NCBI GenBank assembly: GCA_016938675.1
Contig: JAFGUF010000001.1
Coordinates: 134,249-198,248, forward strand
Direction of reading: 5' to 3'
DNA: 64,000 nucleotides
DNA from: Clostridia bacterium
GTDB lineage: Bacteria > Bacillota > Clostridia > Christensenellales > UMGS416
Numbering within the stretch: position 1 is the stretch's first letter; each line of letters starts with the position of its first letter. The notes beneath the pieces were generated by a model that was not told the DNA's origin, ran no database searches, and saw only the letters and a list, made by a program, of their open reading frames with translations. Shown piece after piece: positions 6,014-58,971 of this stretch. The translations under genes were made by a program, and so were the position numbers.

Positions 6014-6913
6014 TCAGAAAATCTCGGCACCTTTTGATGAGGCGGGAGATGAAAACAATTTGTATTCTCCGATACCTTCTAAGTATTCAGACATAGATTT
6101 TATAAATAATTGAGCGTCGCCTGTTACTATGCAGCACATAGTCGGGCCTGCGCCGGAAAGATAGAAAGCATGTGCTCCCAAAGCATATGCTTTATTTTTT
6201 ACTAGGTCATAGTTTGGTATCAGGCTCTTCCTATATGGCTGATGCAGATAATCTTCGCATGCGGCTTTCAGGTTGCCCTCCAGTCCGTTTACAAGTGAGG
6301 CTGTAAGGACGACTGCATTGCCCGATGAATGGACTGCATCATGAAAGCTGTATTCATTGGGAAGCACTTTTCGCGCGTCGCTGGTTTTTAGATGAAAATT
6401 CGGAATAATAAAAACAAATTGAAACTTATCGTGAGGCATCAGCTTAACATAGGTTACTTTTTTATTCTCATCCATTGAAGCTGCTGTCATGCCGCCGAGA
6501 AAAGCGGGCAGCACATTATCCGGGTGTCCGTCCATAGATACTGCCAGGCTTAGCATCTCCTCAAAGTCCAATTTTTCTCCGGAAAGCTTGTTTGCCGCGA
6601 GGATTCCGCCGACTATGCATGCCGCGCTGGAGCCTAAGCCGCGGGCAAAAGGGATATTATTCTCTTGGGTAATTTTAACCGGAATGAAAGCTACGCCTAA
6701 ATAATCATACGATTTCTTCATCGCCTGCACTATCAGATTGGTATCATCTGTCGGTATTATGCCTTTTTCGTCATCAGGGATTACTATTTCCAGAGTGTCA
6801 CTTTTTTCAACAGTAATAAAATTGAAGAGCTCAACTGACATGCCCAGGCAGTCAAAACCGGGGCCGAGATTTGTGGTGGTTGCTGGAATCTTTACTTTAA
6901 AAATAATAATCAC
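6014..6913 (-). CDS. thrB: Homoserine kinase ThrB
   Basis: GHMP kinase with PATTTNLGPGFD and GLGSSAA motifs. The track ORF extends to a GTG at 6961, but that extension overlaps a structured leader. An in-frame GTG at 6913 (or an ATT at 6910/6907), next to AAAGGA, gives the usual spacing of about 10 aa before PATT.NLGPGFD. The exact start is uncertain. Confidence 0.88.
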   Translation of the reverse strand: MIIIFKVKIPATTTNLGPGFDCLGMSVELFNFITVEKSDTLEIVIPDDEKGIIPTDDTNLIVQAMKKSYDYLGVAFIPVKITQENNIPFARGLGSSAACIVGGILAANKLSGEKLDFEEMLSLAVSMDGHPDNVLPAFLGGMTAASMDENKKVTYVKLMPHDKFQFVFIIPNFHLKTSDARKVLPNEYSFHDAVHSSGNAVVLTASLVNGLEGNLKAACEDYLHQPYRKSLIPNYDLVKNKAYALGAHAFYLSGAGPTMCCIVTGDAQLFIKSMSEYLEGIGEYKLFSSPASSKGAEIF

Positions 6914-7137
6914 ATCCTTTAAAATAAATCTTTGCAGCTGACCTGATTTTTGACCCCACACTCGCCAACTGTACGTATTGCTCGGGGTGCATTCCCGTCA
7001 CGCCTCGTCTCTCTTAGCTGCGCTAAGGTTGGACTTACCTCTAAACCGCGCCATGCTCACTGATATTTTTACCAGCTTATGTGGATCGTTTTGCCCGCGA
7101 CTAGCATCGACTTTCAATCACAGACCTGCAAAGATTA
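6914..7137 (-). promoter_or_regulatory. Structured 5' leader of thrB of unassigned class, transcribed from a TTGCAG-17-TATAAT promoter (7172-7144)
   Basis: Leader of about 220 nt that is GC-richer than its flanks. Minus-strand CTTTGCAG (7133-7126) pairs with CTGCAAAG (6937-6930). TGATT (7120-7116) pairs with AATCA (6948-6944). Together these enclose about 170 nt containing several local hairpins. No credible ORF. Confidence 0.5.
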
Positions 7138-7193: not shown

Positions 7194-7565
7194 TTAATGG
7201 TGCAATCTTTCGATCAAGCTATTAAAGTCTTTAACATTACGCCTTGACCGCAAAATACCCCAATTAGTTTTCTTGCTTAGTGGAATAATTTCCGGGATTA
7301 AATAATATGCAGCTTGTCTAACAATTTTGCTGACCTTGATCCATCCCTGTATTTTAACTTTTGAGTTTTTAATTAAAATTACTATATATGAGTATGAGCC
7401 TTGTTTTTCAGTCTGGAAACAATAATTCGCATTGTATTCATCTATGAATTCAGGAACAAACAAGCCACCAGCTTTAAAAACTGAATTTTCTGCCCATTCA
7501 TTAATAATGGAATGTATACCTTCGAAGTACTCAAGGAAAACAGTTGTCTTATTTGGTTTGCTCAT
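7194..7565 (-). CDS. Hypothetical protein (about 123 aa)
   Basis: ORF with a good RBS (AGAGGTG) before the ATG at 7565. No motif recognised. Confidence 0.55.
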   Translation of the reverse strand: MSKPNKTTVFLEYFEGIHSIINEWAENSVFKAGGLFVPEFIDEYNANYCFQTEKQGSYSYIVILIKNSKVKIQGWIKVSKIVRQAAYYLIPEIIPLSKKTNWGILRSRRNVKDFNSLIERLHH

Positions 7566-7616
7566 AATCACCTCTAAAATCTTTTAATATTAATATACAT
7601 ATAGTGTAATAAAATG

Positions 7617-16426: not shown

Positions 16427-16475
16427 GTTTATATTTAATCATTGACAATTACGCTTATTTTATTATAATGTACAT

Positions 16476-16712
16476 AAGAAAATATTGGCTGTGAAAAAGA
16501 GGAGTAAATACCAGTACACTTATCAGAGAGGCCGGGAATGGTGCGATCCGGCTTAAGCAGAGGTATTGAAGGTCGCTTTTGAGCCTCCGTGGTGAACTAA
16601 AGTAGCTTCGGACGTTGTCCGCGTTAAAGACAAATGAGTGTGCAGCATTTATGCTGCGAATCAAGGTGGTACCGCGAACCGCTTCGTCCTTGTGATGGAG
16701 TGGTTTTTTTGT
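16476..16712 (+). promoter_or_regulatory. T-box riboswitch leader (probable Val specifier) controlling the small ORF, valS and folC
   Basis: Promoter TTGACA-16-TATAAT (16442-16469). Stem I AG bulge AGAGAG and distal loop GGGAATGGTGCGA. Specifier-loop candidate GAA-G-GUC-G. Canonical T-box AATCAAGGTGGTACCGCG (16658-16676). Terminator ending in T7 (about 16676-16710). Confidence 0.92.
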
Positions 16713-16734
16713 ACACAGAAAAGGAAGATGTGAT

Positions 16735-16935
16735 ATGAATTTCAATGTAGACGGAGGTTATTGGAAACTGGGGCTTATGCTTTTGGGTGCTTTGCTTGCC
16801 TATGGAGCTGGCTTCATTTCTGCAAAGTTAGTCGCAGAGGATGAGGCAAAAAGAACAAAAGTAAAACTTGCGCTGAAGGCTGCAGGCTTTGTGCTTGTTC
16901 TTGCGGCAGCAATCCTGATTATGTTCTTGGATTGA
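16735..16935 (+). CDS. Small two-TM membrane protein (66 aa) located between the T-box and valS
   Basis: RBS AAAGGAAG 7 nt before the ATG. Two hydrophobic helices flank a charged loop (AEDEAKRTKVK). Confidence 0.55.
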   Translation: MNFNVDGGYWKLGLMLLGALLAYGAGFISAKLVAEDEAKRTKVKLALKAAGFVLVLAAAILIMFLD

Positions 16936-16980: not shown

Positions 16981-19596
16981 ATGGAAAAAACGTATAACAG
17001 CAAAGAATGCGAACAGCGCATATATAAAAACTGGGTTGAAAAAGGCTACTTCCACGAAGAGCCTGATAAATCCAGAGAACCATTTTGCATTGTGATACCA
17101 CCGCCCAATATAACGGGCCAGCTTCACATGGGCCATGCGCTTGACAACACGATGCAGGATATTTTAATTAGATTTAAAAGAATGCAGGGATTTTGCACAC
17201 TGTGGCTACCCGGAACAGACCACGCATCCATAGCAACAGAAGTTAAGATACTTGAGCAACTCGCAAAAGAAGGAATTACTAAGGATGACTTAACGCGCGA
17301 AGAATTCCTTGATAAGGCATGGGAATGGTATAAACTCTACGGCGGCAGAATCGTTGAGCAGCTCAAAAGGCTTGGCTCATCCTGCGACTGGCAGAGGGAG
17401 CGATTCACAATGGACGAAGGCTGCTCAAAGGCTGTACGTGAAGTGTTCGTAAAGCTTTATGATAAGGGCCTTATCTATCAGGGGGACAGGATAATCAACT
17501 GGTGCCCGGACTGCAGGACAGCTCTATCTGACGCAGAAGTAGAATATGAGGAAAAAGCATCGCACCTTTGGCATTTGGAGTACCCTCTGACTGACGGAAG
17601 CGGATACATCGTAGTTGCCACCACACGGCCCGAAACAATGCTTGGCGATACAGCCGTTGCGGTTAATCCAGAAGATGACAGGTATAAAGGGATGGTTGGC
17701 AAGACTGTAATGCTGCCATTGATGGACAGAGAGATACCTATTATCGCAGACAGCTACGTAGAGATGGAGTTTGGTACGGGAGCAGTAAAGATAACTCCGG
17801 CACATGACCCTAATGATTATCTGATGGCCGAACGCCACGATATTGCTACGATTAACATAATGAACGAAGACGGAACATTAAACAGCAATGCCGGCAAGTA
17901 CGCAAAGCTGCCTGCCGCAGAGGCTAGGCGAAAGATCGTTGAGGATCTCAAGGCGATAGACAAGTTGGTAAAAACCGAGGACTACACGCACAAAGTAGGC
18001 ACTTGCTACAGATGCTCAACTACAGTTGAACCGCTTATTTCAAAGCAGTGGTTTGTTAATATGCAGCCTCTTGCCGAACCTGCGATAAAGGCGGTAGAAG
18101 ACAGTGATGTAGAATTTGTTCCTGAAAGATTCAGCAAAATATATTTTAACTGGATGAATAACATAAAGGACTGGTGCATTTCTCGTCAGCTATGGTGGGG
18201 GCACAGGATACCCGTATGGTACTGCAACGACTGCGGGCACATAATGGTAAAAAAAGATGATCCAAGCACCTGCGATAAATGCTCAAGCAAAAACATCAGG
18301 CAGGATGAAGATGTTCTGGACACATGGTTTTCATCAGCATTGTGGCCCTTTTCAACACTGGGCTGGCCGGAAGATACTGCAGAGCTTGAATATTTCTACC
18401 CCACAAATGTTCTTGTAACAGGATATGATATCATTTTCTTCTGGGTAGCTAGAATGATATTTTCAGGCCTTGAGCATATGGGTGAAAAACCATTCAGCCA
18501 CGTTCTAATTCACGGACTTGTACGTGACGCACAGGGCAGGAAGATGAGTAAATCGTTGGGCAACGGTATTGATCCCATTGACGTAATCGAAGAATTCGGC
18601 GCAGACGCTCTTCGCTTTTCAGTAACATCAAACAGCGCACCCGGCAACGATATGAGATTCAACGAATCAAAAATTGAGGCAGCACGCAACTTTGCGAATA
18701 AGATATGGAACGCCGCAAGATTTGTTCATATGAATATTGATGGTCAAAAACCAGAAAAAATAAATATCGCCGAAACAGACGCCGCAGACAAATGGATACT
18801 TTCTCAGCTTAACGGCGTAATAAAGGAAGCTACTCGCAATTTAGAGACATTCGAATTGGGCTTGGCTTTGCAGAAGGTATATGATTTCATATGGTCTGAG
18901 TTCTGTGACTGGTATATTGAGCTGAGCAAGGCAAAGCTTTATGAAGGAACAGAAAGCCAGAAGAAAAATACGACAGCCGTTTTGTATCATGTTCTCATAG
19001 AGTCGCTAAAGCTGCTGCATCCATTCATGCCTTTTGTTACAGAAGAGATTTATCAAAACCTTGAAGGCAGCGATCAATCAATTATGATAGATAAGTGGCC
19101 TCTATATGATGATAAAATGGACTTTGAAGAGGCAGCAAAAATGGAGCTCGTCAAAGACATTATACATAAAATCCGTAATATCCGTGCGCAGATGGATGTA
19201 CCCGCAAACAGAAGGACGACAATTTACATAAGCCCAAAAGAAGGCGTTGACCTAACAGACAGCACGGATTACATAAGGAGGCTCGCATCAGGAGAAAAGG
19301 TTGAACTGCTCCAAAAGGACTCTGAGGATTCTTCAATGGTCAGCATAGTATCAGATGCAGGCAATATATATCTGCCGCTAAATGAGCTGATAGATTTCGA
19401 GAAGGAAAAGGCCAGGGTACAAGGGGAGATTGAGCTGACCAAAAGCGAGATAGCGAGAGCTGAAGGAATGCTTAAAAATGAAAAATTTGTAGCTAAGGCC
19501 CCTGAAAATGTTGTACAGAAAGAAAGGGACAATCTTGCAAATAATCGGGAAAAACTGACACAGCTTGAATCTTCGCTTGAAAAGCTTGAAAACTAA
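16981..19596 (+). CDS. valS: Valine--tRNA ligase
   Basis: 871 aa. HIGH ([14 protein letters not shown]) and KMSKS motifs, plus a C-terminal coiled coil. Confidence 0.97.
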
Positions 19597-25292: not shown

Positions 25293-26477
25293 TTAGTAGA
25301 ACAGTGATTTAATGATATACGCTATGCTGATGCCAAGGTAAGTACCCACCGCATATCCGAAAATACCTGTTATCAAGCCGCTTAATATAACATGTCTGTT
25401 GTTCATTGCTTCCGCTACAGGCGCGATAAAGGCCGGGCCGTATACGCCTGCAGTAGATGTTATGATAGCAGTATCTGCGTCAATTTTGAAAATCTTGCAC
25501 AAAATCAAATGAAGAATGATTGCACCGAACATTACAGACGCTGTGAAGGCAAGGAAAACAGGTGAGGACTTGAAGAAAAGATCAATATCAACTGTTGCTC
25601 CAATTGCGATAGAGAAAATATAAACCGCATATTGCCCCATTGCTGCCGTGCCTTTTGTATTTCGAAGCTTTGGCCAAAAAGATAGAGCAATTGAAAATGT
25701 AGTTACAGAAAGTATAAGGACTAGCATGTTTATCTCGCCTGTAATAAGCAGTGCAAGGCCAACGGATACACCAGTAACCAGAACTGCTATTAAAAATGCA
25801 AATCCGATATGAAGCCATCCTTTTTTAAGCCCGTCCTCAAATATCGGCTCAAGTGCGGGAATATGCACATCTTCAGATGAAACCACTTTGCTTTCATCAA
25901 ATTTCGGAAGTATTTTTCTGTATAGCTTTACGACTACGCTGCCAAGGAGAATAAAATATAATCCGCCGCAGAGCATGTCGCTCATATTGACTATTCCTAT
26001 GTTGTCCTTTGTCATTTCAAGGCTTTGTCCGATTGCGTTAAGGTTTGGTGTTCCTCCTGTATAGCAGCCTGTAAGCATGCCTGCTACTTTCCAACCCTCA
26101 GGCAGCTTGTCGGCGAAAAGCATTCCCATTGTAAGGGAGATAACGAGCGCAGAAATAATCACTAAAAGAAATGACTTTATAGTATCCTTTGCCAAGTGCA
26201 GCCATTTCACAATATCTGCTGAAAACAAAATAAGCGCTATTGCAATTGGCACGCTGATGCTGTAGATGTTTTCAGACACAACTGAATTCCATCCTAAAAA
26301 CGGAATATTCGAAAGCACAATACCCGTCAGGTAGCACAAGACAATAGGGCTTAGGAATTTAATTACTTTATTTTTTTTCGCTAAAACTACAAAAACCTGT
26401 GGTAAGAAAAATATAACGGCAATTTGCAGAACGACCAATCCTACGCCAATAAAGCCGCCGGTGAATAAATCTGACAT
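25293..26477 (-). CDS. Polytopic integral membrane protein (DUF819/YjcL-like putative transporter)
   Basis: 394 aa with more than 10 predicted TM helices. Family assignment is from overall resemblance only. Confidence 0.5.
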   Translation of the reverse strand: MSDLFTGGFIGVGLVVLQIAVIFFLPQVFVVLAKKNKVIKFLSPIVLCYLTGIVLSNIPFLGWNSVVSENIYSISVPIAIALILFSADIVKWLHLAKDTIKSFLLVIISALVISLTMGMLFADKLPEGWKVAGMLTGCYTGGTPNLNAIGQSLEMTKDNIGIVNMSDMLCGGLYFILLGSVVVKLYRKILPKFDESKVVSSEDVHIPALEPIFEDGLKKGWLHIGFAFLIAVLVTGVSVGLALLITGEINMLVLILSVTTFSIALSFWPKLRNTKGTAAMGQYAVYIFSIAIGATVDIDLFFKSSPVFLAFTASVMFGAIILHLILCKIFKIDADTAIITSTAGVYGPAFIAPVAEAMNNRHVILSGLITGIFGYAVGTYLGISIAYIIKSLFY

Positions 26478-26612
26478 AAAAAATACCTTATCCTTATAAA
26501 TTATTATTAATCAGTTTATTATAGCATTAAATGAAGTATTTTCATTCTACGAACGAAATTATGTATAATATGTTACACTTTCTTTACATAAGATATTATT
26601 ATGTGTTATAAT

Positions 26613-27208
26613 TGCTCCACGGTGGTGCAGTATTCTAGTCAGCACCACTGCTTTTGAAGGCGGGGCTAAAAATCCGTCAAAGGGCAAATCGATGAAGCTT
26701 CTTGTGCTGGCTGCCGATGCCCAATCGGGGGCTTGTGCTGGGAGATAAGGAAGAAGGGCGATCCGCAACGGCATGTGGGCGATGACCCAGCTTCCATGGA
26801 GACCTGACCGAGTGGCATGAACTTTTAAAGTGTTACTTGCCGGGATTAAACCTGCAATGCGGTGATACAAAGCTGTGTGCAGTGTAGCCTGCCTTGAGTG
26901 AGAATGGTGGATTGCTGGAACACATTCTTTTCCCGAGTGGATCCGAGGGGATTGAATGATTGCCTCCTGAAACCACTTTTGCAAAAGAGGCTAGAAAGCA
27001 GTGGAACTGTCGAGGAAAGCTCCTAGACTGAAAATTAAAAGCATAGTGGGGATTATAGTGCGCACTAAGTGGTAGTCCAGCCCCGGTGTTGGCAACACAT
27101 CGGCGCGGGGTTCAAAAGGAAACTGCTTTACCGGTGACGGGAAGTACCCTTCGGGGAAAGCCAGCTGGACCAATGTCGCAAGGTTTATCCACTATGCTAC
27201 CACCTCAA
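26613..27208 (+). ncRNA. ole: OLE (ornate, large, extremophilic) RNA candidate
   Basis: About 590 nt with no plausible + strand ORF, and visibly GC-richer than the AT-rich flanks. Many hairpins, including a + strand-specific G-U pair (GGTGGTGC 26621-28 / GCACCACT 26642-49) and CCC-UUCG-GGG (27147-56). Promoter TTTACA-18-TATAAT (26583-26612). Directly upstream of oapA-dxs-tlyA-nadK-argR-recN, the published OLE context. Boundaries are approximate. Confidence 0.8.
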
Positions 27209-27213
27209 TTTAT

Positions 27214-27804
27214 TTGGAGATTGCTTTGAATAAGACTTCAAAAACAAATAATACAACAAAATGGTCATGGGTGATAAAAATATTCGCTGTGACTATTATA
27301 TTAGCTTCATTACTATCATTGGCCTCAGAAGCTGCATTGAGGAATTTTTCTCTTCCGCTTGCTTTTCTGGCTCTGATTTTTTTTGTTTTTTTGGGTATTT
27401 TGTTTGATACGATTGGCGTAGCAGTGGCTACAGCAGACATGACGCCCTTCGTAGCAATGAGCTCAAAAAGAGTGCGTGGAGCAAAAGAAGGGCTATTCTT
27501 GCTGCAGCGCGCTGAAATAGTCGCGAATATCTGCAATGACGTAGTGGGAGATATCTGCGGAATAATAAGCGGTGCAGCCGGCGGAATAATAGTGATTACA
27601 CTGGTATCAAAAATTGAAAACATTTCTTCGCTTATGATTTCAGTAATTTTAAGTGCGTTAATTGCAGGTTTCACTGTTTCCGGAAAAGCATTAGGCAAAA
27701 TAATTGCGATGAGAGACAATAAAGAAATTGTTCTTATTGTCGGCAGGGTGATACATGTATTCACCGGCATATGGAGAAAAGATAATGGAAAATATTTTAA
27801 ATAG
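27214..27804 (+). CDS. oapA: OLE-associated protein A (OapA), 4-TM membrane protein
   Basis: 196 aa with four hydrophobic helices and a DxxxD motif (NDVVGDI; D codons at 27538 and 27550). It lies immediately downstream of the OLE candidate and upstream of dxs. TTG start at 27214. An alternative TTG at 27226 is preceded by GGAGA. Confidence 0.78.
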   Translation: MEIALNKTSKTNNTTKWSWVIKIFAVTIILASLLSLASEAALRNFSLPLAFLALIFFVFLGILFDTIGVAVATADMTPFVAMSSKRVRGAKEGLFLLQRAEIVANICNDVVGDICGIISGAAGGIIVITLVSKIENISSLMISVILSALIAGFTVSGKALGKIIAMRDNKEIVLIVGRVIHVFTGIWRKDNGKYFK

Positions 27805-29674
27805 TATAAACGAACCAAGTGACATAAAAAAACTAAGCATTAGCGAGCTTAAAGACCTTGCAGTAGAAATAAGGCGCATGATCATTAAAACTGTTGCAAA
27901 AAACGGAGGTCATCTTGCGTCCAATTTAGGAATAGTTGAGGCAACGCTGGCAATACATAAAGTATTTGACCTGCCGAAAGACAGCATCATTTTTGATGTA
28001 GGCCATCAATGCTATACACACAAGATAATTACAGAAAGAAAAGATGATTTTTATACATTGCGCCAGCAAGGCGGCATAAGCGGATTCCCAAAACGGGAAG
28101 AGAGCACATATGACAGTTTTAACACCGGCCACTCGTCCACATCCATATCTGCTGCTGTAGGCATGGCTAGGGCTAACAGGCTGCAGGGGAAAAACAACCA
28201 TGTTGTGGCTTTAATAGGCGACGGAGCACTGACCGGGGGCATGGCATGGGAAGCTATAAATGACCTTGGGCATAACAAGGAAAAGGTCATAATAATTCTC
28301 AATGATAATGAAATGTCAATCAACAGGAACGTAGGCGCAATGTCAAGATACCTGAATACTCTGCGCACAAAGAGCGGATATGTACACGCGAAGCTTTCGG
28401 TTTCCCGCTTTATGAAATCCGTTCCCGGCATCGGCAAACCCATATATGATTTTTTCTCAAGACTTAAAGACAGCTTCAGGTTCCTCTTCATGAACAACAT
28501 GCTTTTTGAGGAAATGGGCTTGAAATATTACGGGATATTGGACGGGCATGATATCAGGCTGATGACCAGAATACTGGAGCAGTGCAAGGAAATAAACGGC
28601 CCAGTGCTTATTCATATAAAAACAAGAAAAGGCAGAGGCTACAAATATGCCAGCAGCCTGCCTGATCAGTACCATAGTACGACTCCTTTTGACATAAAAA
28701 CAGGTGAGAAGAAAAACAAAGGAAAATATAATCTTCCTGTACAGATGTCTGAAAGGCTTATTAAGCTGGGAGCAAAAGACAGCCGTATATGCGTCATAAC
28801 AGCTGCGATGCAAAGCGGATGCGGCCTGGATGAATTTAAGAAGGCAAATCCGACACGCTTTTTTGATGTTGGTATAGCTGAAGCTCACGCTGTAACTATG
28901 GCCGCAGGGCTGGCAGCGGGAGGTATGAAGCCGGTTTTTTCGGTGTATTCCACCTTTTTGCAGCGAGCATATGACCAGATTGTTCATGATGTCTGCCTGC
29001 AGAATCTGCCTGTAGTATTTCTAGTGTACAATAGCGGCATTGTGGGGAGTGACGGAGAAACGCATCAGGGAGTGTATGACATTTCTTTTCTCAGGCACAT
29101 ACCGAACCTGAAAATAATTTCACCTTCGTCAAAGCAAGAGGCTGAAAACGCTCTAGACTTTGCTTTCTCTGCGGACGCTCCTATCGCGCTGCTTCTGGGT
29201 AATCAGCTGCCAGAGCATAACCTTTATAATTCACAGCAGAACAATATGTATAAATGGGCAATGGTTACAAAGGCAAAATATAAAAAGGTAGCTTTAATAT
29301 CAAACTCCAGCCTCTTAGTTCAGTGCATGGACGCCGCCATTGATAAAAAACACTATAGCTACACGGACGTATTTAATGCTAGGTCAATAAAACCCTTAGA
29401 TAAGCAGATGCTTGGATATATCGCTAATAATTATGAGATAATAATCACCGTTGAAGATAATCTTTTGCAAGGGGGATTCGGCAGCGCAGTGCTTGAGCAC
29501 CTTAATAAGTACGAAAGTGCTAAAAACCACATTATATGCCTCGGATATGATGACATATACATAGAGCACGGCTCGAAAGAATTCATTTACAATAAATATT
29601 CACTCGATACAGAAGGTATTAGTAAGCTTTTAGACAGCCTGAAATTAAGCAACGAGGATAAAAATGCAGGGTAA
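27785..29674 (+). CDS. dxs: 1-deoxy-D-xylulose-5-phosphate synthase
   Basis: About 629 aa. GGHLASNLG, the TPP-binding GDGALTGGMAWEA motif, and a transketolase-like C-terminus. The ATG at 27785 (RBS GGAGAAAAG) overlaps the oapA 3' end by 20 nt. Confidence 0.96.
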   Translation: MENILNSINEPSDIKKLSISELKDLAVEIRRMIIKTVAKNGGHLASNLGIVEATLAIHKVFDLPKDSIIFDVGHQCYTHKIITERKDDFYTLRQQGGISGFPKREESTYDSFNTGHSSTSISAAVGMARANRLQGKNNHVVALIGDGALTGGMAWEAINDLGHNKEKVIIILNDNEMSINRNVGAMSRYLNTLRTKSGYVHAKLSVSRFMKSVPGIGKPIYDFFSRLKDSFRFLFMNNMLFEEMGLKYYGILDGHDIRLMTRILEQCKEINGPVLIHIKTRKGRGYKYASSLPDQYHSTTPFDIKTGEKKNKGKYNLPVQMSERLIKLGAKDSRICVITAAMQSGCGLDEFKKANPTRFFDVGIAEAHAVTMAAGLAAGGMKPVFSVYSTFLQRAYDQIVHDVCLQNLPVVFLVYNSGIVGSDGETHQGVYDISFLRHIPNLKIISPSSKQEAENALDFAFSADAPIALLLGNQLPEHNLYNSQQNNMYKWAMVTKAKYKKVALISNSSLLVQCMDAAIDKKHYSYTDVFNARSIKPLDKQMLGYIANNYEIIITVEDNLLQGGFGSAVLEHLNKYESAKNHIICLGYDDIYIEHGSKEFIYNKYSLDTEGISKLLDSLKLSNEDKNAG

Positions 29675-30470
29675 GCGGCTGGATAATTATATAGTTGAGA
29701 TCGGCGAATGCCCGTCAAGAGAAAGCGCGAAGCGGCTGATAATGGCAGGCAAAGTGCTTGTGAATGAAATAGTTATATCGAAGGGCTCATATATTGTCAA
29801 GGATTCGGATTTAATCAGAATCAAAGAAAGACAGAAATTTGTAAGCAGGGGAGGGCATAAGCTGGAAAAGGCACTTGAAGTCTTTCCCGTTGATGTAAGC
29901 GGCCTTTCAATATTGGACATTGGCGCTTCAACAGGAGGGTTTACAGACTGCCTGCTGCAAAACGGCGCTAAAGAAATATGCGCAGTTGACGTAGGGTACG
30001 GCCAGCTGCACTGGTCTCTGCGCAATGACGAAAGAGTTAAAGTGCTTGAGCGTACAAATGCAAGATATATTACTCCTGAAATTTTAGAAAAGAAATATGA
30101 CGCTGCAGTTTGTGATGCGTCATTTATTTCGCTTAAGCTTCTTCTGCCTGCAATTGATGACTGTACTGATGATGGTGCCTTTTTTATTGGCTTGATCAAA
30201 CCTCAGTTTGAATGCGGAAAAGAAAACGTTGGCAAAGGCGGAGTCGTAAAGGATGAAAATGTCCATGCTGAAACAGTTGAAAGCGTTATAGATTATATTA
30301 ACTCCAATACTTCATTTAGTGTGCTGCAGCTGGATTTTTCGCCAATAACCGGTCCGAAAGGAAATATTGAATTTCTTGTGTTCTGCCGTAAAAATGTTAA
30401 GGAAACGCATATAAATACATTACAAATTATTAAAAATGCACACCTGTTCTTTAAAAATACAAAAAACTAG
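29664..30470 (+). CDS. tlyA: TlyA family rRNA 2'-O-methyltransferase (hemolysin A-like)
   Basis: 268 aa. N-terminal S4 domain, FtsJ-like methyltransferase, and the motif DIGASTGGFTDCLLQNGA. Confidence 0.92.
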   Translation: MQGKRLDNYIVEIGECPSRESAKRLIMAGKVLVNEIVISKGSYIVKDSDLIRIKERQKFVSRGGHKLEKALEVFPVDVSGLSILDIGASTGGFTDCLLQNGAKEICAVDVGYGQLHWSLRNDERVKVLERTNARYITPEILEKKYDAAVCDASFISLKLLLPAIDDCTDDGAFFIGLIKPQFECGKENVGKGGVVKDENVHAETVESVIDYINSNTSFSVLQLDFSPITGPKGNIEFLVFCRKNVKETHINTLQIIKNAHLFFKNTKN

Positions 30471-30489
30471 TTTATTAAAATAAAAAATA

Positions 30490-31371
30490 ATGTATAATAT
30501 TAACATGAATAAAAATTGTGCAGACTGCAAAGTAGGAATTGTGTTAAATTCCGGCAATAAAAAAACAGCAGAAATCAAGCAGGAGCTTTACTCAAAACTC
30601 CTAAGCAAAAACCTTGATACTGTGGTTTATGATGGTGATATTGCCCACTCAGATGCATTAGATGATTTTTCATCTTCATTGGATCTAATCTTTGCAATAG
30701 GCGGAGACGGCACGCTGCTATCTGTATTAAGAAGCTGCGGCAAGAAGGGCGTGCCAGTTATCGGCATTAACGCCGGAAGAAAAGGATTTCTTGCAGAAAT
30801 ATCTACTGAAGAAATTGACTTTGCGATTGAAAAAATAATTTCTAAAAGCTATTCCATTGAGGAAAGGCTTATGCTCGAAGCTACTGTTGTGAGCGAAGAC
30901 GGCGAAGAAGTATCAAAAGATATTATTGCTGTCAATGATTTCAACGTAGCAAGGCATGGCTATGCACGCATGATACGCCTGGAAGTCTATATAGACGATC
31001 AGCTGGCAGACAGCTTTGACGCTGACGGCGTACTTGTATCCAGCCCTATTGGCTCCACCGCTTATTCCCTTTCAGCGGGCGGGCCTATTATTTTGCCGGG
31101 TATAGACTGCATTCTTATTACGCCGGTATGCTCTCATTCGCTGCATGCCCGGCCTATGATAACACCTGATAATGTAAAAATAAAAATTGTAGCTAAAGAC
31201 CAGCTGCATGATGTAATAACGACGATTGACGGACAAAGCCTGATATCAGTGCCTGTAAAAGGATATATTGAAATAACTAAATCCAAGTTTAAGGCCAGGT
31301 TTGTGAGATTTCGTAACGAAGATTATTATTCGAGGTTCTGGAAGAAGATAATAAACTGGAGCATTAACTGA
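30490..31371 (+). CDS. nadK: NAD+ kinase
   Basis: 293 aa. GGDGTLL motif and the NadK C-terminal domain (SSPIGSTAYSLSAGGPI). The start could be the ATG at 30505. Confidence 0.93.
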   Translation: MYNINMNKNCADCKVGIVLNSGNKKTAEIKQELYSKLLSKNLDTVVYDGDIAHSDALDDFSSSLDLIFAIGGDGTLLSVLRSCGKKGVPVIGINAGRKGFLAEISTEEIDFAIEKIISKSYSIEERLMLEATVVSEDGEEVSKDIIAVNDFNVARHGYARMIRLEVYIDDQLADSFDADGVLVSSPIGSTAYSLSAGGPIILPGIDCILITPVCSHSLHARPMITPDNVKIKIVAKDQLHDVITTIDGQSLISVPVKGYIEITKSKFKARFVRFRNEDYYSRFWKKIINWSIN

Positions 31372-31395
31372 AAAAGAATTGTGAGGACTTAAATT

Positions 31396-31848
31396 ATGAC
31401 TAAAAATCAAAGACAGCTTGCTATACTTGAGACAATTGACAAAAAGGAAATACATACTCAGGGTGAGCTGGTGGAGGAAATACTCAATCTTGGATTTGAC
31501 GTAACTCAAGCCACCATTTCGCGCGACATAAACGAACTTAAGCTGATAAAAATATCAACTGAAGACGGCAGTCATAAGTACGCTACGCAGGATAAAGCAA
31601 CGGATAAACTCTCGGGTAGGAAACTTCGTATTTTCTACGAGAGTGTCATATCAGTTAAGCGCTCGAAAAACATCATTATAATCAATACGCTGACAGGCAG
31701 CGCGAATGCAGCAGCAGAGACAATAGATTCGCTCCACTGGGATGGTATACTCGGCACAATTGCTGGTGACAACTGCATTATGGTGATACTGGATGAAGAA
31801 ATTGATGGTGATGAAATTTACCAAAAATTCAGCAACTTGCTTGCATAA
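31396..31848 (+). CDS. argR: Arginine repressor ArgR/AhrC
   Basis: 150 aa. Winged HTH (TQGELVEEILNLGFDVTQATISRDINEL) and a C-terminal oligomerisation domain (GTIAGDNCIMV). Confidence 0.93.
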   Translation: MTKNQRQLAILETIDKKEIHTQGELVEEILNLGFDVTQATISRDINELKLIKISTEDGSHKYATQDKATDKLSGRKLRIFYESVISVKRSKNIIIINTLTGSANAAAETIDSLHWDGILGTIAGDNCIMVILDEEIDGDEIYQKFSNLLA

Positions 31849-31893
31849 TATGATATAATAAATTTTAAGAAATTCAGGGAAGGACAACACGGC

Positions 31894-33609
31894 ATGCTGC
31901 AATATCTATCAATAAGAAACGTAGCTGTAATAGAAAGTGTAGAGATAGAATTTGAAGACGGGCTTAATATCTTAACCGGTGAAACAGGCGCCGGAAAGTC
32001 CATCGTGATTGATTCAGTGAATCTGGCTCTGGGCGAAAGAGCAGACAAGAACATGATACGAACTGGAACGGATAAAGCCGTAGTTCAGGGTGTTTTTGAT
32101 TTAAGCAAATCTCCGGTATCCAAAGCATTGCTTAAGGGATACTTCGATATAGATGATAATGAGCTTGTTGTAATAAGAGAACTTTCAGCAAACGGCAGGA
32201 ACGTTTGCAAGATAAACGGCAATGTCGCTACACTAATGCAGCTAAAAAGCATTACATCCTCACTTGTCGATATTCACGGCCAGCATGAGCACCAGTCGCT
32301 GCTGGACGAAGCAAATCATATTAAGGTCGTAGACGGCTTTTCAGGCGAAGAGCTGGCGTCTCTTAAGAATCTTTACAGGCAGAAATTTCACGAATATATT
32401 AAAACAAAAGAAGAGATTGAATCCATGCAGCTCAATGAACTGGAACGACAGAGACAGATTGAGATGTACCAGTTTCAGATACGCGAAATAGACGAAGCAA
32501 AGCTGCAGACTGACGAGGATAACATCCTAAAGGAACAACGCCAGCTTCTTATTAGTTCCGAAGACATAAAGCGCTGTATAGACAATGCTCATTTTGCTCT
32601 TTCTGGAAGCGAGGAGGGGGCATCTATTTCAATGCTTGTACAGGTGGCCTATGATAACCTGGCAGCACTGGCGGAGATTGATAAAACGCATGCGCCTCTG
32701 GCCTCACGCCTTGAGGAGCTGATTATTGAGCTTGATGATATATCTGATGAAGTAAGAATCCTAGAGAGGGATTTCGACTTCGACCTAAATGACCTTGAAG
32801 AAATCGAAAACCGCCTCATGCTTCTAAAAAGGTTAAGCAAAAAGTATGGCTCTGATGTAAACGAGATAATAGTATACAGAAAAGAAATCGGCGAAAGGCT
32901 TCTGCTTTTGGATGAACATGAAATAATTCTGGATGAGCTGGAGAGAAGGGAAAAATCTCTTTATGACCAGTGCCTCAATATAGCCGTTCAGATGTCTGAG
33001 ATTAGAAAATCTGCTTCAATGCAGCTTCGCTTAAGGATTCTTGAGCAGCTTGCAGACCTTGGCATGGAAAATTCTGAATTCGAAACGCAGTTTGTATCAT
33101 CAACAGATGAAAACGGAGAATATATACTTGGCAAAAAAGGCATAGACAATGTAAGGTTTTTGATATCCACAAACCTAGGCGAAGATGTAAAGCCTCTGCG
33201 CGGAGTAGTATCCGGCGGTGAGCTTTCCAGGATAATGCTGGTTTTAAAGAGTATAACAGCACAAATTGACGATATAGACACGCTGATATTTGATGAAATA
33301 GATACCGGAATAAGCGGCGAAATGGCTAGGGTAGTGGGGGAGAAACTGGCTGTTATTGCATCCGGCAGGCAGGTAATATGCGTAACACACTCTGCGCAGA
33401 TAGCAGCGCTCTCGGACAATCATTTATTTATTTCAAAGAAAGTTGAAGATAATAAGACAAAGACGCTGATTACAAAGCTTGATATTGACCAGCGCTACAA
33501 AGAGATATCCAGGCTTGTTGGCGGAACAACAATGAGCTATTTAAGCGATGAGCACGCGAAGCAGATCATACACTATTCCAATGAGTTTAAGCAGAAATAT
33601 AGAAGCTGA
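31894..33609 (+). CDS. recN: DNA repair protein RecN
   Basis: 571 aa. SMC-like, with N-terminal Walker A (GETGAGKS), a long coiled coil, a C-terminal signature (SGGELSR) and Walker B (LIFDEIDTG). Confidence 0.96.
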   Translation: MLQYLSIRNVAVIESVEIEFEDGLNILTGETGAGKSIVIDSVNLALGERADKNMIRTGTDKAVVQGVFDLSKSPVSKALLKGYFDIDDNELVVIRELSANGRNVCKINGNVATLMQLKSITSSLVDIHGQHEHQSLLDEANHIKVVDGFSGEELASLKNLYRQKFHEYIKTKEEIESMQLNELERQRQIEMYQFQIREIDEAKLQTDEDNILKEQRQLLISSEDIKRCIDNAHFALSGSEEGASISMLVQVAYDNLAALAEIDKTHAPLASRLEELIIELDDISDEVRILERDFDFDLNDLEEIENRLMLLKRLSKKYGSDVNEIIVYRKEIGERLLLLDEHEIILDELERREKSLYDQCLNIAVQMSEIRKSASMQLRLRILEQLADLGMENSEFETQFVSSTDENGEYILGKKGIDNVRFLISTNLGEDVKPLRGVVSGGELSRIMLVLKSITAQIDDIDTLIFDEIDTGISGEMARVVGEKLAVIASGRQVICVTHSAQIAALSDNHLFISKKVEDNKTKTLITKLDIDQRYKEISRLVGGTTMSYLSDEHAKQIIHYSNEFKQKYRS

Positions 33610-36482: not shown

Positions 36483-36962
36483 ATGATTAATTATATAAAA
36501 ATTGAAATGATGAAGTATAATCACGGCGACACAAGAAGAATTAACCATGCGCTAAAGGTTCATTCCTATGCAAAAATAATTGGGGAGGCGGAAAACCTTA
36601 AAGAGGATGAGCTTTTCACATTAGAGGCTGCTTCCGTTCTTCACGATATTGGCATAAAGGAATGTGAAAGGAAATATAGTAAATGCGGCGGCTATTATCA
36701 GCAAATTGAAGGCCCACCTGTCGCAAGGCAGCTACTTTCAGAAATTGATATGGACAGCTCAAAATTAGAAAGAGTTATTTATCTAATAAGCAGGCATCAC
36801 ACATTTAAAAATGTTGATGGCAGGGACTATCAAATTCTCCTTGAAGCTGACCTCATTGTAAACGCGCAGGAAGAATATATCTCAGAGTACGCATTCAGGA
36901 ACGCAGTGGATAAGCTATTTGTAACAGAAATGGGCAAATATTTATCAAGTGTTGTCTTATAA
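36483..36962 (+). CDS. HD domain-containing protein
   Basis: 159 aa. H...HD pattern (INHALKVH ... SVLHDIG ... SRHH). Confidence 0.7.
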   Translation: MINYIKIEMMKYNHGDTRRINHALKVHSYAKIIGEAENLKEDELFTLEAASVLHDIGIKECERKYSKCGGYYQQIEGPPVARQLLSEIDMDSSKLERVIYLISRHHTFKNVDGRDYQILLEADLIVNAQEEYISEYAFRNAVDKLFVTEMGKYLSSVVL

Positions 36963-45812: not shown

Positions 45813-47060
45813 TTGAGATTATCAAAAACTGAAGTCAATAATCTTGTATCTGGCGTTGAAATGAAATATGCCAGATACTTTGCTACTATTGATAAAATTG
45901 CACTTTATAACCAGAAGAAGGTGCTTGAAGCTTTCCAGAAAGCCAGAGTTGAAAGCAGGCATTTTTCCGGTAGCACAGGCTATGGATATGGTGATGAAGG
46001 CAGATACAAATTGGAGGAGGTTTTCACAGCAGTTTTCGGCAGTGAGGCCTCTTTAGTGCGTAGCCAGTTCGGCAGCGCAACCCACGCAATTGTAATGAGC
46101 CTCAGAGCGCTGCTTAAGCCCGGCGATACACTATTTTCAATAACAGGACAGCCCTATGATACCGTATATAATTCAATAAAAAGTAAAGGGCAGGGGAGTG
46201 CGCTCGAAGATTACGGCGTAAAATATGATGACATTAATTTACTTGATGACAAAGACATAAATTATGCCGGAATAGAGAAATACCTTCAGTCTAATCGTCC
46301 AAAAGTTATTTTTATACAGAAATCACGAGGCTATATGTGGCGTGAAGCACTGATCAATACAGAAATTGAAAAAGTTATTAAATTAATCAGGTTAGTTTCA
46401 CCCAATTCTATTGTTTTTATTGATAATTGCTATGGTGAGTTTGTCGAAGAGTCTGAGCCGTGTGAAATAGGCGCAGATGTATGCATCGGTTCATTAATAA
46501 AAAATCCCGGCGGGTCAATTGCTCCTACAGGAGCCTATATAACAGGCAAAAAGCAGTATATTGATGAAATTTCTTCCTTTTTTTATGCAGTCAATCTAAA
46601 TGATGAAATCGGATCATATGAGCAGGGATACAGGCTGCTTTTTCAGGGTCTTTTTATGGCTCCGCATATTGTAGCGCAGTCAATGAAGTGCGCGCTGCTT
46701 TTTTCTGCAGTATATAAAGAGCTGGGGTATGATGTAATGCCTGCTCCGGAATCTGTGCGCGGCGATATCACCCAAAGCATGAGGCTTGCAAGCAAAGAAG
46801 AATTATTAAGTTTTTGCCGTAAAATACAGAAGGCATCTCCCGTTGACTCGCACCTTGTGCCTGAGCCTTGGGAAATGCCAGGATATTCTGATAAAGTTAT
46901 TATGGCCGCAGGGACATTTGTTCAGGGAGCCTCTATTGAGCTCTCAGCTGACGCTCCTGTCGGAAATGAACCTCCATATATGGTCTACCTGCAGGGCGGA
47001 ATAACATATGAGCACTGTAAAATAGCGCTTATTAATACATTAACGGATGCGTCTGAATAG
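45813..47060 (+). CDS. Methionine gamma-lyase / cystathionine beta-lyase family protein (YnbB, 'aluminium resistance' COG4100 type)
   Basis: 415 aa. ALYNQKKVLEAFQ...HFSGSTGYGYGDEGR N-terminus characteristic of the family. TTG start at 45813. Confidence 0.8.
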   Translation: MRLSKTEVNNLVSGVEMKYARYFATIDKIALYNQKKVLEAFQKARVESRHFSGSTGYGYGDEGRYKLEEVFTAVFGSEASLVRSQFGSATHAIVMSLRALLKPGDTLFSITGQPYDTVYNSIKSKGQGSALEDYGVKYDDINLLDDKDINYAGIEKYLQSNRPKVIFIQKSRGYMWREALINTEIEKVIKLIRLVSPNSIVFIDNCYGEFVEESEPCEIGADVCIGSLIKNPGGSIAPTGAYITGKKQYIDEISSFFYAVNLNDEIGSYEQGYRLLFQGLFMAPHIVAQSMKCALLFSAVYKELGYDVMPAPESVRGDITQSMRLASKEELLSFCRKIQKASPVDSHLVPEPWEMPGYSDKVIMAAGTFVQGASIELSADAPVGNEPPYMVYLQGGITYEHCKIALINTLTDASE

Positions 47061-47666
47061 TGCTGTAACCTTTCCTAATATCTGAACTTCCTCTGCCGGA
47101 TATATAAGCGGATCCATTGTTTCATTTTCCGGCTGAAGCCGCACGTTTTTACCCTCCAGATAAAATGTTTTTACCGTTGCTTCATCATCGCCAATCAAGG
47201 CAACAACAATATCGCCGTCAAATGCGTAATTCTGCCGTTTAATTACTATGAAATCGCCATCGTTTATTCCGACTTCTATCATGCTTTCGCCACGCACCTT
47301 TAGCGCGAAAGAATCTTCATCAGCTACAATGTATTTTGGCATTGGAAGGTATTCATGTATATTTTCATCGGCAAATATCGGCATTCCGGCTGTAACCGTT
47401 CCTAAAAGCGGAACTGTAAGCGATCTGTTTCTGGCCTGCCTGTCTGCATCATCAATCTCAATTGCTCTTGATTTTCCGCTGCCGCGCCTAATGAAGCCTT
47501 TGTTTTCAAGCCTTGTAAGGTGTCCATGAACTGTAGAGGTGGATGTCAATCCGACTTCATTGCAAATATCCCTTACAGATGGCGGATAATTATGCTCTTC
47601 GACATAATCTTTAAGGTACACATAGATTTTCCGCTGCATTCCCGTTAATTCGTTTATATCTTTCAT
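47040..47666 (-). CDS. lexA: SOS repressor LexA
   Basis: 208 aa. Winged-HTH N-terminus and an S24 peptidase domain with the Ala-Gly cleavage region (VTAGMP), catalytic Ser (GESM) and Lys. Confidence 0.96.
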   Translation of the reverse strand: MKDINELTGMQRKIYVYLKDYVEEHNYPPSVRDICNEVGLTSTSTVHGHLTRLENKGFIRRGSGKSRAIEIDDADRQARNRSLTVPLLGTVTAGMPIFADENIHEYLPMPKYIVADEDSFALKVRGESMIEVGINDGDFIVIKRQNYAFDGDIVVALIGDDEATVKTFYLEGKNVRLQPENETMDPLIYPAEEVQILGKVTALFRRIR

Positions 47667-47738: not shown

Positions 47739-48893
47739 TTAATCATCAAAATAATCTATGTTTTTTGGGGCTTCTTTGCGTCTGTCTTCGCTGATAGCGG
47801 CATAGTGCTTCTTTGTGGTATTTACATCTTTATGCCCGAGAACATCAGCAACCAGATAAATATCGCCAGTATTATGGTACAAAGCAGTGCCGAAAGTGCT
47901 TCTGAACTTATGCGGAGATATATTTTTGAGCGGATTCACAATCTTTGTATATTTATCAACCAGTTTTTCAACAGCTCTATGCGTGATTCTATTATTTTGA
48001 AGGGAAATGAATAGGGCATCTGCGTCCTTTCCCTTGATTTCTATCTTTTCCCGCTGACTAATGTATGCCCTTAGGATATCTTTGGTATAATTAGAATAGT
48101 ATAATATCGCCTGGCTTCCGCCTTTACGAGTGACCTTGAAGGCATTTTCATCAAAATAGATGTCTTTTATGTCAATTCCTATTAATTCGCTCAATCGTAT
48201 ACCCGTATCAAGCAGCAAAACAATGATAGCAGTATCTCTCAATACAGTTTTTTTGTGATATCCGGCTTCTTTGGGCGTCAATCCTTCACCTGATTCTACA
48301 ATTTGAACTAATTTAACAATTTCATCCGGCGTTAAGCGCAAAATAGTCTTTTCTTTTATCTTTGGCGAGTCAATTATGCCAGTTGCATCTTCAGAAATCA
48401 GCCTGTGTTTAAGCAAATAAGTAAAAAACGAGCTTATTGCGGATAATTTACGCTTTTTCCCAGGGTTTGTATTGCTATAGGTGTATCCATTTTTCTCATA
48501 AGAGCTGATATAATGCAGAAATTCCTCTATATCCTTTGTTGTAATTGCCTTTATATGGGATATATTAACATATTGTGAAGGGTGAATGGGAGCAGGGGGT
48601 TTATCCTGAATTTCATCAGCATCTTCATTATTTTCAAGCGTTTCACCAATGTTTTCCGAATCAATTGAATAATAAGAAACGTACTGATCATAATGTGGTC
48701 TAATGTCAGCAAAGGAGTCACATTGAGTATAAAGATATTCAAAGAAGATTATTAAATCGTTAGCGTAATTTATTCTGGTTAAAATGGATGTATTGCTGGA
48801 AGCTGCTATAAAAAAATCATAGCAGAGGTCAGGAAGCTTGAAAAGCAGTTTTCTTAATCTTTCATTGTTTTGCGCATTATTATTAATATCCAT
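47739..48893 (-). CDS. Tyrosine site-specific recombinase (XerC/XerD/phage-integrase family), orphan
   Basis: 384 aa. C-terminal catalytic motifs (R in DTGIRLSEL; HKFRSTF; LGHKDVNTTKKHY). Extended N-terminal SAM-like domain. Confidence 0.88.
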   Translation of the reverse strand: MDINNNAQNNERLRKLLFKLPDLCYDFFIAASSNTSILTRINYANDLIIFFEYLYTQCDSFADIRPHYDQYVSYYSIDSENIGETLENNEDADEIQDKPPAPIHPSQYVNISHIKAITTKDIEEFLHYISSYEKNGYTYSNTNPGKKRKLSAISSFFTYLLKHRLISEDATGIIDSPKIKEKTILRLTPDEIVKLVQIVESGEGLTPKEAGYHKKTVLRDTAIIVLLLDTGIRLSELIGIDIKDIYFDENAFKVTRKGGSQAILYYSNYTKDILRAYISQREKIEIKGKDADALFISLQNNRITHRAVEKLVDKYTKIVNPLKNISPHKFRSTFGTALYHNTGDIYLVADVLGHKDVNTTKKHYAAISEDRRKEAPKNIDYFDD

Positions 48894-55357: not shown

Positions 55358-55684
55358 AATCTTACCTCACATTTATTGTATTGATATAAGTCAATCCTAC
55401 TATGTTAATATTATAACATATATAAAAATATTTAAAAACCTCTCTTTGGCTATTGCAGAAAATATATTGCATTTATTTTAGTTTAATTTGTGTACATATT
55501 ATTAAAGCGTCTCTTTTTCTATTGTATATATCTTTTAATTGTATATAATATAATGTATGGGAATTTATATTTTGGGTTATTGCCTGTAATTTGCACGGTA
55601 TTTCAATTTATTCTGTTAAATATGATTAAGTCTGCTCAAAATAAACCATATATAAAGCAGTGTATTTTTTGTGAAGGTGTTTAT

Positions 55685-58886: not shown

Positions 58887-58971
58887 GCCGAAGTGATGAA
58901 ATTGGCAGACGTGCTTGACTCAAAATCAAGTGCCTACGGGCGTGCCGGTTCGAATCCGGCCTTCGGCACCA
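58887..58971 (+). tRNA. tRNA-Leu (anticodon CAA), CCA encoded
   Basis: Acceptor stem GCCGAAG/CTTCGGC. Anticodon stem CTTGA/TCAAG with loop CTCAAAA. Long variable arm. T-arm GGTTCGAATCC. Promoter TTGATT-17-TAGAAT upstream. Confidence 0.93.

Follow-up and report, generated by a model that had tools for sequence, protein, structure and literature searches.

OLE (ornate, large, extremophilic) RNA, a large folded noncoding RNA found in Gram-positive anaerobes, was reportedly described by Puerta-Fernandez et al. in 2006. Its consensus has since been updated by Fernando & Breaker 2024 (PMC11332333), with an Infernal survey of the Bacillota genomes in GTDB R214 that counted 2,822 OLE representatives (PMC11332333). 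The definitions of the OLE types, a full-length type and the reduced variants 1 and 2, come from the same source, which described the reduced variants for the TANB77 and RF39 clades (PMC11332333). Expression of the RNA, its localisation to the membrane via the protein OapA, and the need for it under stress are known only for Halalkalibacterium halodurans and for Escherichia coli as a surrogate (PMC12265935), while the OLE RNAs of Clostridium acetobutylicum and Clostridium botulinum have been solved as dimers by cryo-electron microscopy (cryo-EM) (PMC12286853; Wang et al. 2025, as cited in PMC12265935). The locus considered here lies in a 64-kb stretch of contig JAFGUF010000001.1 (hereafter the window, meaning the whole stretch), from an uncultured Clostridia bacterium of the same class as these two clostridia, and is almost certainly an ole gene that encodes a canonical full-length OLE RNA. 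It is an already known kind of element, one ordinary member among thousands. The host name is a matter of depositor labels only: ‘Clostridia bacterium’ through exact protein matches to a public metagenome-assembled genome, with ‘Eubacteriales bacterium’ as the nearest species representative. Segments identical to the window occur in two short-read assemblies, SRR13394436 and SRR13394437, traced via RecN; the equivalent look-up with the OapA protein returned nothing.

Run against the window, the Rfam OLE covariance model RF01071 gives an end-to-end match at 26606-27219 (+), scoring 489.3 bits (E 1.6e-140) against a gathering score of 50 bits. The match spans model positions 1-616 of 616, untruncated and with posterior probabilities near 1. 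Because it is full length and far above the gathering score, the locus is an OLE RNA, and family membership is established here. The preliminary description of this stretch had proposed an OLE RNA at this place, to be compared with the Rfam model and examined for conserved structure; that call is borne out by the match, by covariation across 39 independent relatives, which backs the family structure, and by an OapA-family gene downstream.

The structured core of 584 nucleotides (nt) agrees with the family’s length of about 600 nt. The lengths of P7 (42 nt), P8 (31 nt) and P9 (100 nt) are all close to the consensus, and P13 has an intact OapB site at its tip; for these reasons the RNA is of the full-length type, neither variant 1 nor variant 2. 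Both variants share with the window the conserved core nucleotides and the linkage to oapA; however, variant 1 has shortened P7-P9 and has often lost the OapB site, and variant 2 is without P7 and P8, whereas the window has all of these elements. In common with full-length OLE RNA, it has every helix of the model, including P7, P8 and the long P9, together with all invariant blocks, P1, a P3-type stem, an A-rich P4 loop, the junction sequences of the kink-turn (k-turn), GNRA loops on P13 and P14.1, and the P13 bulge. The likeness extends to the setting, with oapA at once downstream, followed by dxs-tlyA-nadK-argR-recN, and a host labelled as Clostridia, in the Bacillota; OLE hosts are members of this phylum and typically anaerobes or extremophiles.

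Relatives were gathered by probing metagenome contigs with an 18-nt conserved OLE stretch, which yielded 120 loci; an additional locus, L001, was taken from the species-representative genome, which carries its own OLE at 503.6 bits. The two closest relatives are L001 and L019, at 89% and 86% identity to the window. The covariation alignment comprises the window and 39 dereplicated relatives (40 OLEs, 58-89% identical to the window), aligned with MAFFT blind to structure, and the structure scored on it was that of Rfam plus two long-range helices that Rfam leaves unpaired. Standard pairs occupy 86.8% of cells, vs 40-47% in controls with the 3' partners slid by 1-3 columns, and the covariation score is 0.477 vs 0.11-0.15 for the slid structures, with the proviso that the structure string was projected from the window’s own row and is hence somewhat favoured over these slid controls. 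Changes on both sides are seen in 136 of the 172 pairs, and 0/500 shuffles match any observed measure. Conservation of the structure and covariation of its pairs are established here. Very high conservation of about 25% of the nucleotides, in blocks that separate the stems, is a mark of OLE RNA. In the 40-sequence alignment about 100 columns are invariant and about 130 nearly so, and the blocks of the window match the upper-case consensus of Rfam; the window has the consensus base at every invariant column by construction of the list, and the 18-nt probe motif, invariant by selection, is to be discounted.

All four helices quoted in the preliminary description are present in the sequence where it had placed them, and the alignment separates those that belong to the family fold from those that do not. 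Pairing of the 5' GGTGGT with ACCACC (27199-27204), offered there as a mere alternative, is real: it forms P1, paired in 98% of cells with three covarying pairs. The local hairpin GGTGGTGC/GCACCACT (26621-28/26642-49), the 3' arm of which overlaps the 5' strand of the long-range stem, is not conserved, being paired in 66.6% of cells vs a shuffle mean of 66.7%, with 332/500 shuffles as high. Nor are the remaining two part of the family fold, as GTGTT-GGC-AACAC (27086-98) is paired in 46% of cells vs 89% for the P13 register, and CCC-UUCG-GGG (27147-56) in 71% vs 88% for P14. The GGG of the latter is part of an invariant GGGAAA junction, and its CCC pairs instead with 27108-10 in P14 (88% paired), most positions of which show five or six types of pair. 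The conserved folds are P1, an 11-bp long-range helix, a GNRA-capped, bulged P13, and P14. Both P1 and the 11-bp helix are recovered in the single-sequence minimum-free-energy (MFE) fold; the outer pairs of the latter are blurred by the alignment, and it is unpaired in Rfam. By position, the 11-bp stem corresponds to the published P3/P3.1, which encloses domain 1, the name being taken from the text of PMC12265935. There, the P3/P3.1 stem, of about 12 bp, is proposed as a membrane-spanning segment (PMC12265935).

On the + strand between 26478 and 27213 there are no open reading frames (ORFs) of at least 50 aa, in keeping with the ORF-free interval of the preliminary description, and the GC-rich segment in AT-rich flanks that it had pointed out is likewise found, GC content being 0.475-0.545 over 26600-27199 vs 0.275-0.33 in the flanks. 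The + strand (26619-27206) has a folding energy of -211.1 kcal/mol (z = -2.79), with 0/100 dinucleotide shuffles as good, whereas the minus strand of the same region gives z = -0.95, with 19/100 shuffles as good; the fold of the region exceeds chance, on the + strand only. The two minus-strand ORFs said to be the only frames called here, at 26559-26984 (141 aa) and 26991-27173 (60 aa), are present, but they are not alone, as a third lies at 26666-26818 (-). If one or both of the first two encoded real proteins, the RNA structure would be incidental, and the 141-aa ORF does keep its start position in L001. However, substitutions in that ORF are spread over the codon positions with no bias (19/12/13 in L001 and 18/17/18 in L019), and 82% and 68% of them, respectively, hit positions that are paired in the RNA, the share of such positions in the region being 54%. 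Stop codons interrupt the 60-aa ORF in both L001 and L019 and the 141-aa ORF in L019, neither ORF has a Pfam match even at E <=10, and across 94 OLEs the median length of the longest open stretch on the minus strand is only 96 codons. The folding excess is missing from the minus strand, and it is the plus strand that Rfam matches. Judged by these comparisons, the minus-strand ORFs over the OLE RNA are not coding: translation of one of them, raised in the preliminary description, is contradicted by the lack of codon-position bias and the stops in the closest relatives, and the idea that they encode proteins retains next to no probability. The non-coding status of the interval is established here.

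When the RF01071 structure is laid on the window, 136 of its 159 pairs are canonical; of the rest, 19 are non-canonical and 4 involve deleted positions. Several observations weigh against a canonical OLE RNA, though none contradicts its membership in the family: the 19 non-canonical pairs, most of them at the tips of P7, P8 and P9, which are variable; a small hairpin at model positions 424-435 that is unformed in the window; a P6 3' strand that reads CUUCC, an imperfect anti-Shine-Dalgarno (SD) mimic; the missing ispA upstream of ole; and the absence of oapB and oapC from the window. The whole 64 kb were searched for ispA, oapB and oapC and none was found; mpfA is likewise not in the window. 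A genome with the full OLE ribonucleoprotein is expected to have oapB, for a KOW/SBB protein, and oapC, for a YbxF/L7Ae homologue, and to lack mpfA. Set against full-length OLE RNA as described, the differences are minor and comprise the P9 loop (GGAUCC vs GGCC), the CUUCC strand of P6, the linker after CUAGACUG, which is without a hairpin, and a divergent DUF819 gene in the place of ispA. The 19 non-canonical and 4 gapped pairs, together with the loss of the usual ispA neighbour, could also mark an OLE remnant in decay, no longer functional yet still recognised by the model. Such a pseudogene is very improbable, as the match is full length with posteriors near 1, no invariant block of the 40-sequence alignment is broken, the differences to L001 and L019 are concentrated in paired positions, and pairs vary by compensatory change across the 40 sequences. 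In addition, oapA is intact with all family motifs and the near-consensus promoter is conserved in three relatives. An intact, full-length OLE RNA is the reading followed below. A lineage-specific loss of the 424-435 hairpin was considered as a separate matter and rejected, since the linker is variable family-wide and the hairpin is predicted in only 19/65 sequences.

The stem-by-stem map (Table 1) can be set beside the functional sites published for OLE RNAs. In the solved dimers the A-rich P4 loop is a dimerisation contact (PMC12265935, PMC12286853), and the self-complementary P9 loop is the intermolecular kissing loop (PMC12265935, PMC12286853). The vicinity of P4a is the site of OapA and the k-turn, formed by J4a/5 with J5/6 or J6/7, that of OapC (PMC9723947, PMC12286853, PMC12265935), J6/7 forming the 3' half of the k-turn in the cryo-EM structure (PMC12286853). 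The GGG/CCC region of P6 is the site of bS21 (PMC12054373), and OapB recognises the GNRA tetraloop and bulge of P13, with P14.1 as a weak second site (PMC7936274). At the level of sequence only, the window has the dimerisation loops, L4 GCUAAAAA (26665-72), L5.1 GCCCA, L6.1 ACGGCA and L9.3 GGAUCC, as well as the junctions AUCGAUGAAG (26688-97) and GGAGA (26798-802) and the P6 GGG/CCC pairs, these last three being invariant in the alignment. The GGC of the P6.1 loop ACGGCA complements the GCC of the P5.1 loop GCCCA. The same domain-1 dimer elements (A-rich L4, complementary L5/L6, self-complementary L9.3) characterise the C. acetobutylicum and C. botulinum OLE RNAs, which were set beside the window by description; here L9.3 is the 6-nt palindrome GGAUCC. 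As the 3' strand of P6 is CUUCC and not a perfect anti-SD mimic, binding of bS21 is less certain. P13 reads CCGGTG[T]TG-GCAA-CACATCGG, with one nucleotide bulged out two pairs beneath the loop, and a GNRA loop stands here in 37/40 sequences.

The P9 terminal loop is GGAUCC in the window and GGCC in most relatives; GAGCUC, GGUACC, UUUAAA, GUGCAC and GGGCCC are found as well, all self-complementary (L001, L019, L089 and L036 are among the loci looked at). A self-complementary P9 loop occurs in 67/75 sequences vs 39 expected, a comparison that is descriptive only and confounded by the symmetry of the stem, and the automatic loop picker behind it missed the window’s own loop. A loop that changes its sequence and keeps its self-complementarity fits a kissing-loop dimer contact. 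Length also varies within the family, as the OLEs of L079, L091 and L071 have additional hairpins, as long as about 100 nt, inserted downstream of P5 and within P8 (alignment columns about 145-185 and 410-510), which shows variation beyond the published reduced variants.

Table 1. Features of the ole-oapA locus, in window coordinates; percentages are cells paired in the 40-sequence alignment.
Feature	Position	Strand	Remarks
Sigma-70-type promoter (predicted)	26583..26612	+	-35 TTTACA 26583-88, 18-nt spacer with TG extension, -10 TATAAT 26607-12; 11/12
OLE RNA structured core	26621..27204	+	584 nt, P1 5' strand to P1 3' strand; RF01071, pairs, covariation, z = -2.79
P1 5' strand GGTGGT	26621..26626	+	Pairs with ACCACC 27199-27204; 98% paired, 3/6 pairs compensatory
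P1 3' strand ACCACC	27199..27204	+	Pairs with 26621-26626
Long-range helix, 5' strand CCACTGCTTTT	26645..26655	+	11 bp with 26994-27004; all 11 pairs covary, 76% paired
Long-range helix, 3' strand GAAAGCAGTGG	26994..27004	+	Same 11-bp helix; also in MFE fold
P4 hairpin	26659..26678	+	A-rich loop GCTAAAAA at 26665-72; 95% paired
Conserved junction AAGGGCAAATCGATGAAG, P4a/J4a-5 region	26680..26697	+	Near-invariant columns; palindrome ATCGAT 26688-93; 5' half of published k-turn
P5/P5.1 stem	26698..26744	+	Loop GCCCA 26719-23 invariant; 95% paired, 12 covarying pairs
P6/P6.1 stem	26749..26795	+	Conserved GGG/CCC pairs; loop ACGGCA 26768-73
J6/7 ATGGAGA	26796..26802	+	GGAG invariant (columns G193-G196)
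P7 stem-loop	26803..26844	+	14 covarying pairs; marks full-length type
P8 stem-loop	26852..26882	+	RF01071 and covariation alignment; marks full-length type
P9 long arm (P9-P9.3)	26891..26990	+	Terminal loop with self-complementary GGATCC 26939-44
Small hairpin GAG-GAAAG-CTC, followed by invariant CTAGACTG	27012..27030	+	100% paired, all 3 pairs covary
3' domain (domain 2; P12-P15 multi-stem junction)	27040..27198	+	Helices 81-99% paired, nearly all pairs covary
P13	27083..27103	+	CCGGTG-[T27089 bulge]-TG-GCAA-CA-CATCGG; GNRA tetraloop 27092-95; 89% paired
P14.1 hairpin	27125..27145	+	GTGA (GNRA) tetraloop 27134-37; GNRA in 39/40 sequences
oapA ribosome-binding site GGAG	27216..27219	+	11 nt past P1 end, 6 nt before in-frame TTG 27226
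oapA	27226..27804	+	192 aa, TTG start (most likely); exact match MBN2878152.1, ‘hypothetical protein’ in public record
dxs, tlyA, nadK, argR, recN	27755..33609	+	Same strand downstream, probably co-transcribed
Divergent DUF819 membrane-protein gene	25293..26477	-	Occupies usual place of ispA; context, not part of the ribonucleoprotein

The gene directly downstream, with an ORF called from 27214 and the TTG at 27226 as its most likely start, had been given as oapA-like in the preliminary description, and this is upheld by its four hydrophobic segments, its DxxxD motif and the occurrence of a homologue after OLE elsewhere. In 78 fetched loci the homologue comes immediately after OLE in the same orientation, nearly all others being too short downstream, and where 3 kb or more of downstream sequence is available the family follows OLE in 48 of 52 loci. 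OapA has been defined by four transmembrane helices and a conserved basic cluster on one face (PMC12265935). In the window’s protein, hydrophobic segments lie at residues 16-34, 41-59, 110-128 and 133-151, and the basic stretch SSKRVRGAK between segments 2 and 3 aligns with a conserved PFHxMAxxKxxGAK block. DxxxD, which sets OapA apart from CNNM domains (PMC11332333), is found in CNDVVGDICG, where D105 is invariant and D109 at least 90% conserved among 33 OLE-linked homologues. The OapA family as a whole displays a strongly conserved CNDV(V/I)GD(I/V)xG motif. Searches of Pfam and NCBIfam returned no family for the oapA product even at E <=10, and a profile of the 33 OLE-linked OapA proteins had no match among PDB sequences; membership in OapA is for this reason assigned by motifs, topology and linkage. 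By these features the downstream gene is a true oapA, and its identity and linkage to ole are established here.

OapA resembles the transmembrane domain of CNNM proteins, and the occurrence of MpfA anticorrelates with that of ole (PMC11332333). Compared with the MpfA/CorB CNNM Mg2+ transporters, the window’s OapA has four segments and DxxxD, and is without CBS or CorC domains. It has no Pfam CNNM match at E <=10 and no PDB sequence match, as expected because the CNNM relationship was reported from structure comparison (PMC11332333).

Upstream, the TTTACA-18-TATAAT noted in the preliminary description (26583-26612) is present, with 11/12 consensus matches and a TG extension, and as a motif it is established here; its activity is predicted, with transcription expected to start at about 26619-26621, right at the first helix. 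The motif TTTACA...TATAAT is also kept in L001 and L019. A promoter of its own had been put forward as a special feature of this RNA, but it is typical of ole, since a -10-like box occurs at the promoter position in 56/103 OLE loci vs 12/103 at a control position. The preliminary description had further placed ispA upstream of OLE. A polyprenyl synthetase (IspA) is indeed found in 41/57 loci that have a same-strand upstream ORF; in the window it is absent, and the divergent DUF819 gene stands there instead, an arrangement found only in the window, L001 (1068-2252, -) and L019. Because ispA is replaced upstream by this divergent gene, ole heads its transcription unit in the window’s lineage.

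In the other direction, the gene order that had been read as an oapA-like gene, dxs, tlyA, nadK, argR and recN is confirmed, and other OLE loci have dxs (40/52), tlyA (26/29) and nadK (22/29) among their downstream genes. The dxs ORF as called, from 27755, shares 50 nt with the end of oapA. Its DXP-synthase domain match sets in at residue 15, so a later codon may be the true start of dxs. No terminator was found between OLE and oapA, and the ribosome-binding site of oapA lies 11 nt past P1, so ole would be on one transcript with oapA and probably with dxs-tlyA-nadK-argR-recN.

This arrangement also allows the region to be read as mainly cis-acting, a very long structured 5' leader (riboswitch- or attenuator-like) that controls oapA-dxs. 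Here the oapA mRNA would literally have ole as its 5' leader, with the promoter directly upstream, no terminator before oapA, and a spacer from the end of P1 to the oapA start of 21 nt (median 41 nt in 71 loci, <=40 nt in 34/71). Yet members of the family act in trans by experiment, as an abundant, membrane-localised ribonucleoprotein that binds OapA, OapB, OapC and bS21 (PMC12265935, PMC9723947, PMC7936274, PMC12054373), and a length of roughly 600 nt with a dimeric architecture (PMC12286853) is beyond any known leader. OLE stands mid-operon after ispA in most loci, not at the 5' end, and no expression platform (terminator/anti-terminator, SD sequestration) is evident in the window. For H. 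halodurans, a stable processed OLE apart from the oapA mRNA and trans complementation of an ole deletion have been reported. A mainly cis-acting leader is accordingly improbable, and the RNA is taken to be a trans-acting OLE RNA in what follows.

For this locus, expression, processing, dimerisation, protein binding, membrane location and a physiological role are inferred from the literature only, by homology with the systems known from the genetics and biochemistry of H. halodurans and the Clostridium cryo-EM structures. Transcription would begin at the sigma-70-type promoter (26583-26612), at about 26619-26621, and the RNA would fold into the family structure, closed by P1 (26621-26/27199-204), with the 11-bp stem (26645-55/26994-27004) dividing domain 1 (P4-P9) from the 3' domain (P12-P15). 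Two such RNAs may then dimerise, with contacts made by the A-rich loop of P4, the loops of P5.1 and P6.1, and the self-complementary GGATCC loop of P9. The membrane protein OapA would bind the RNA and take it to the membrane, while OapB would sit on P13 with its GNRA loop and bulge, OapC on the k-turn and bS21 on P6. Such a particle may aid tolerance of short-chain alcohols, cold, excess Mg2+ and poor carbon sources, a role probably tied to CNNM-like divalent-cation transport by OapA. The tight cis linkage of ole and oapA might itself be functional, in that co-translational insertion of OapA would carry the attached OLE RNA to or into the membrane; this is unlikely, though if true, such cis delivery would bear on how OLE RNA enters the membrane.

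The window contains further elements. Besides OLE, the 64 kb include a second class of large structured noncoding RNA, a raiA-motif RNA (RF03072) at 6929-7134 (-), scoring 169.9 bits vs a gathering score of 101.3. Directly downstream of it is a homoserine kinase (thrB) ORF at 6014-6961 (-), the called start of which overlaps the RNA by about 30 nt, so that the real start is probably further downstream. This GHMP kinase was considered as ispE, which would have made a second link between an ornate RNA and isoprenoids, and the assignment was rejected, the gene being homoserine kinase. Between the raiA RNA and an HD-domain gene, a 125-aa ORF at 7194-7571 (-) has no confident family match. A T-box leader at 16482-16694 (+), with 135.8 bits, precedes a valyl-tRNA-synthetase-like gene (16981-19596), and the minus-strand ORF that lies over it (16455-16745, 96 aa) is probably spurious. 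A 159-aa ORF at 36483-36962 (+) has no confident family and only a weak HD-domain match (E 4.3e-05). Further along, lexA (47040-47666, -) adjoins a Xer-type tyrosine recombinase (47739-48893, -), the best NCBIfam matches of which are XerS, XerA, XerC and XerD, all below curated cut-offs. A single tRNA-Leu (anticodon CAA) at 58887-58971 (+) follows a 1086-aa GGDEF-EAL gene at 55490-58750.

OLE RNA is a large, ancient-looking RNA that is associated with the membrane and perhaps spans it. The present locus, from an uncultured host, contributes little to what is known of it and does not make the biochemical function of the family more testable. Its value lies in annotation: protein-only gene calling would miss the RNA and could add spurious minus-strand ORFs over it, and oapA is labelled as hypothetical in the public record. 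The details of its lineage, with ole first in its transcription unit and the GGAUCC variant of the P9 loop, may serve as comparative data points for the family, none of them surprising.

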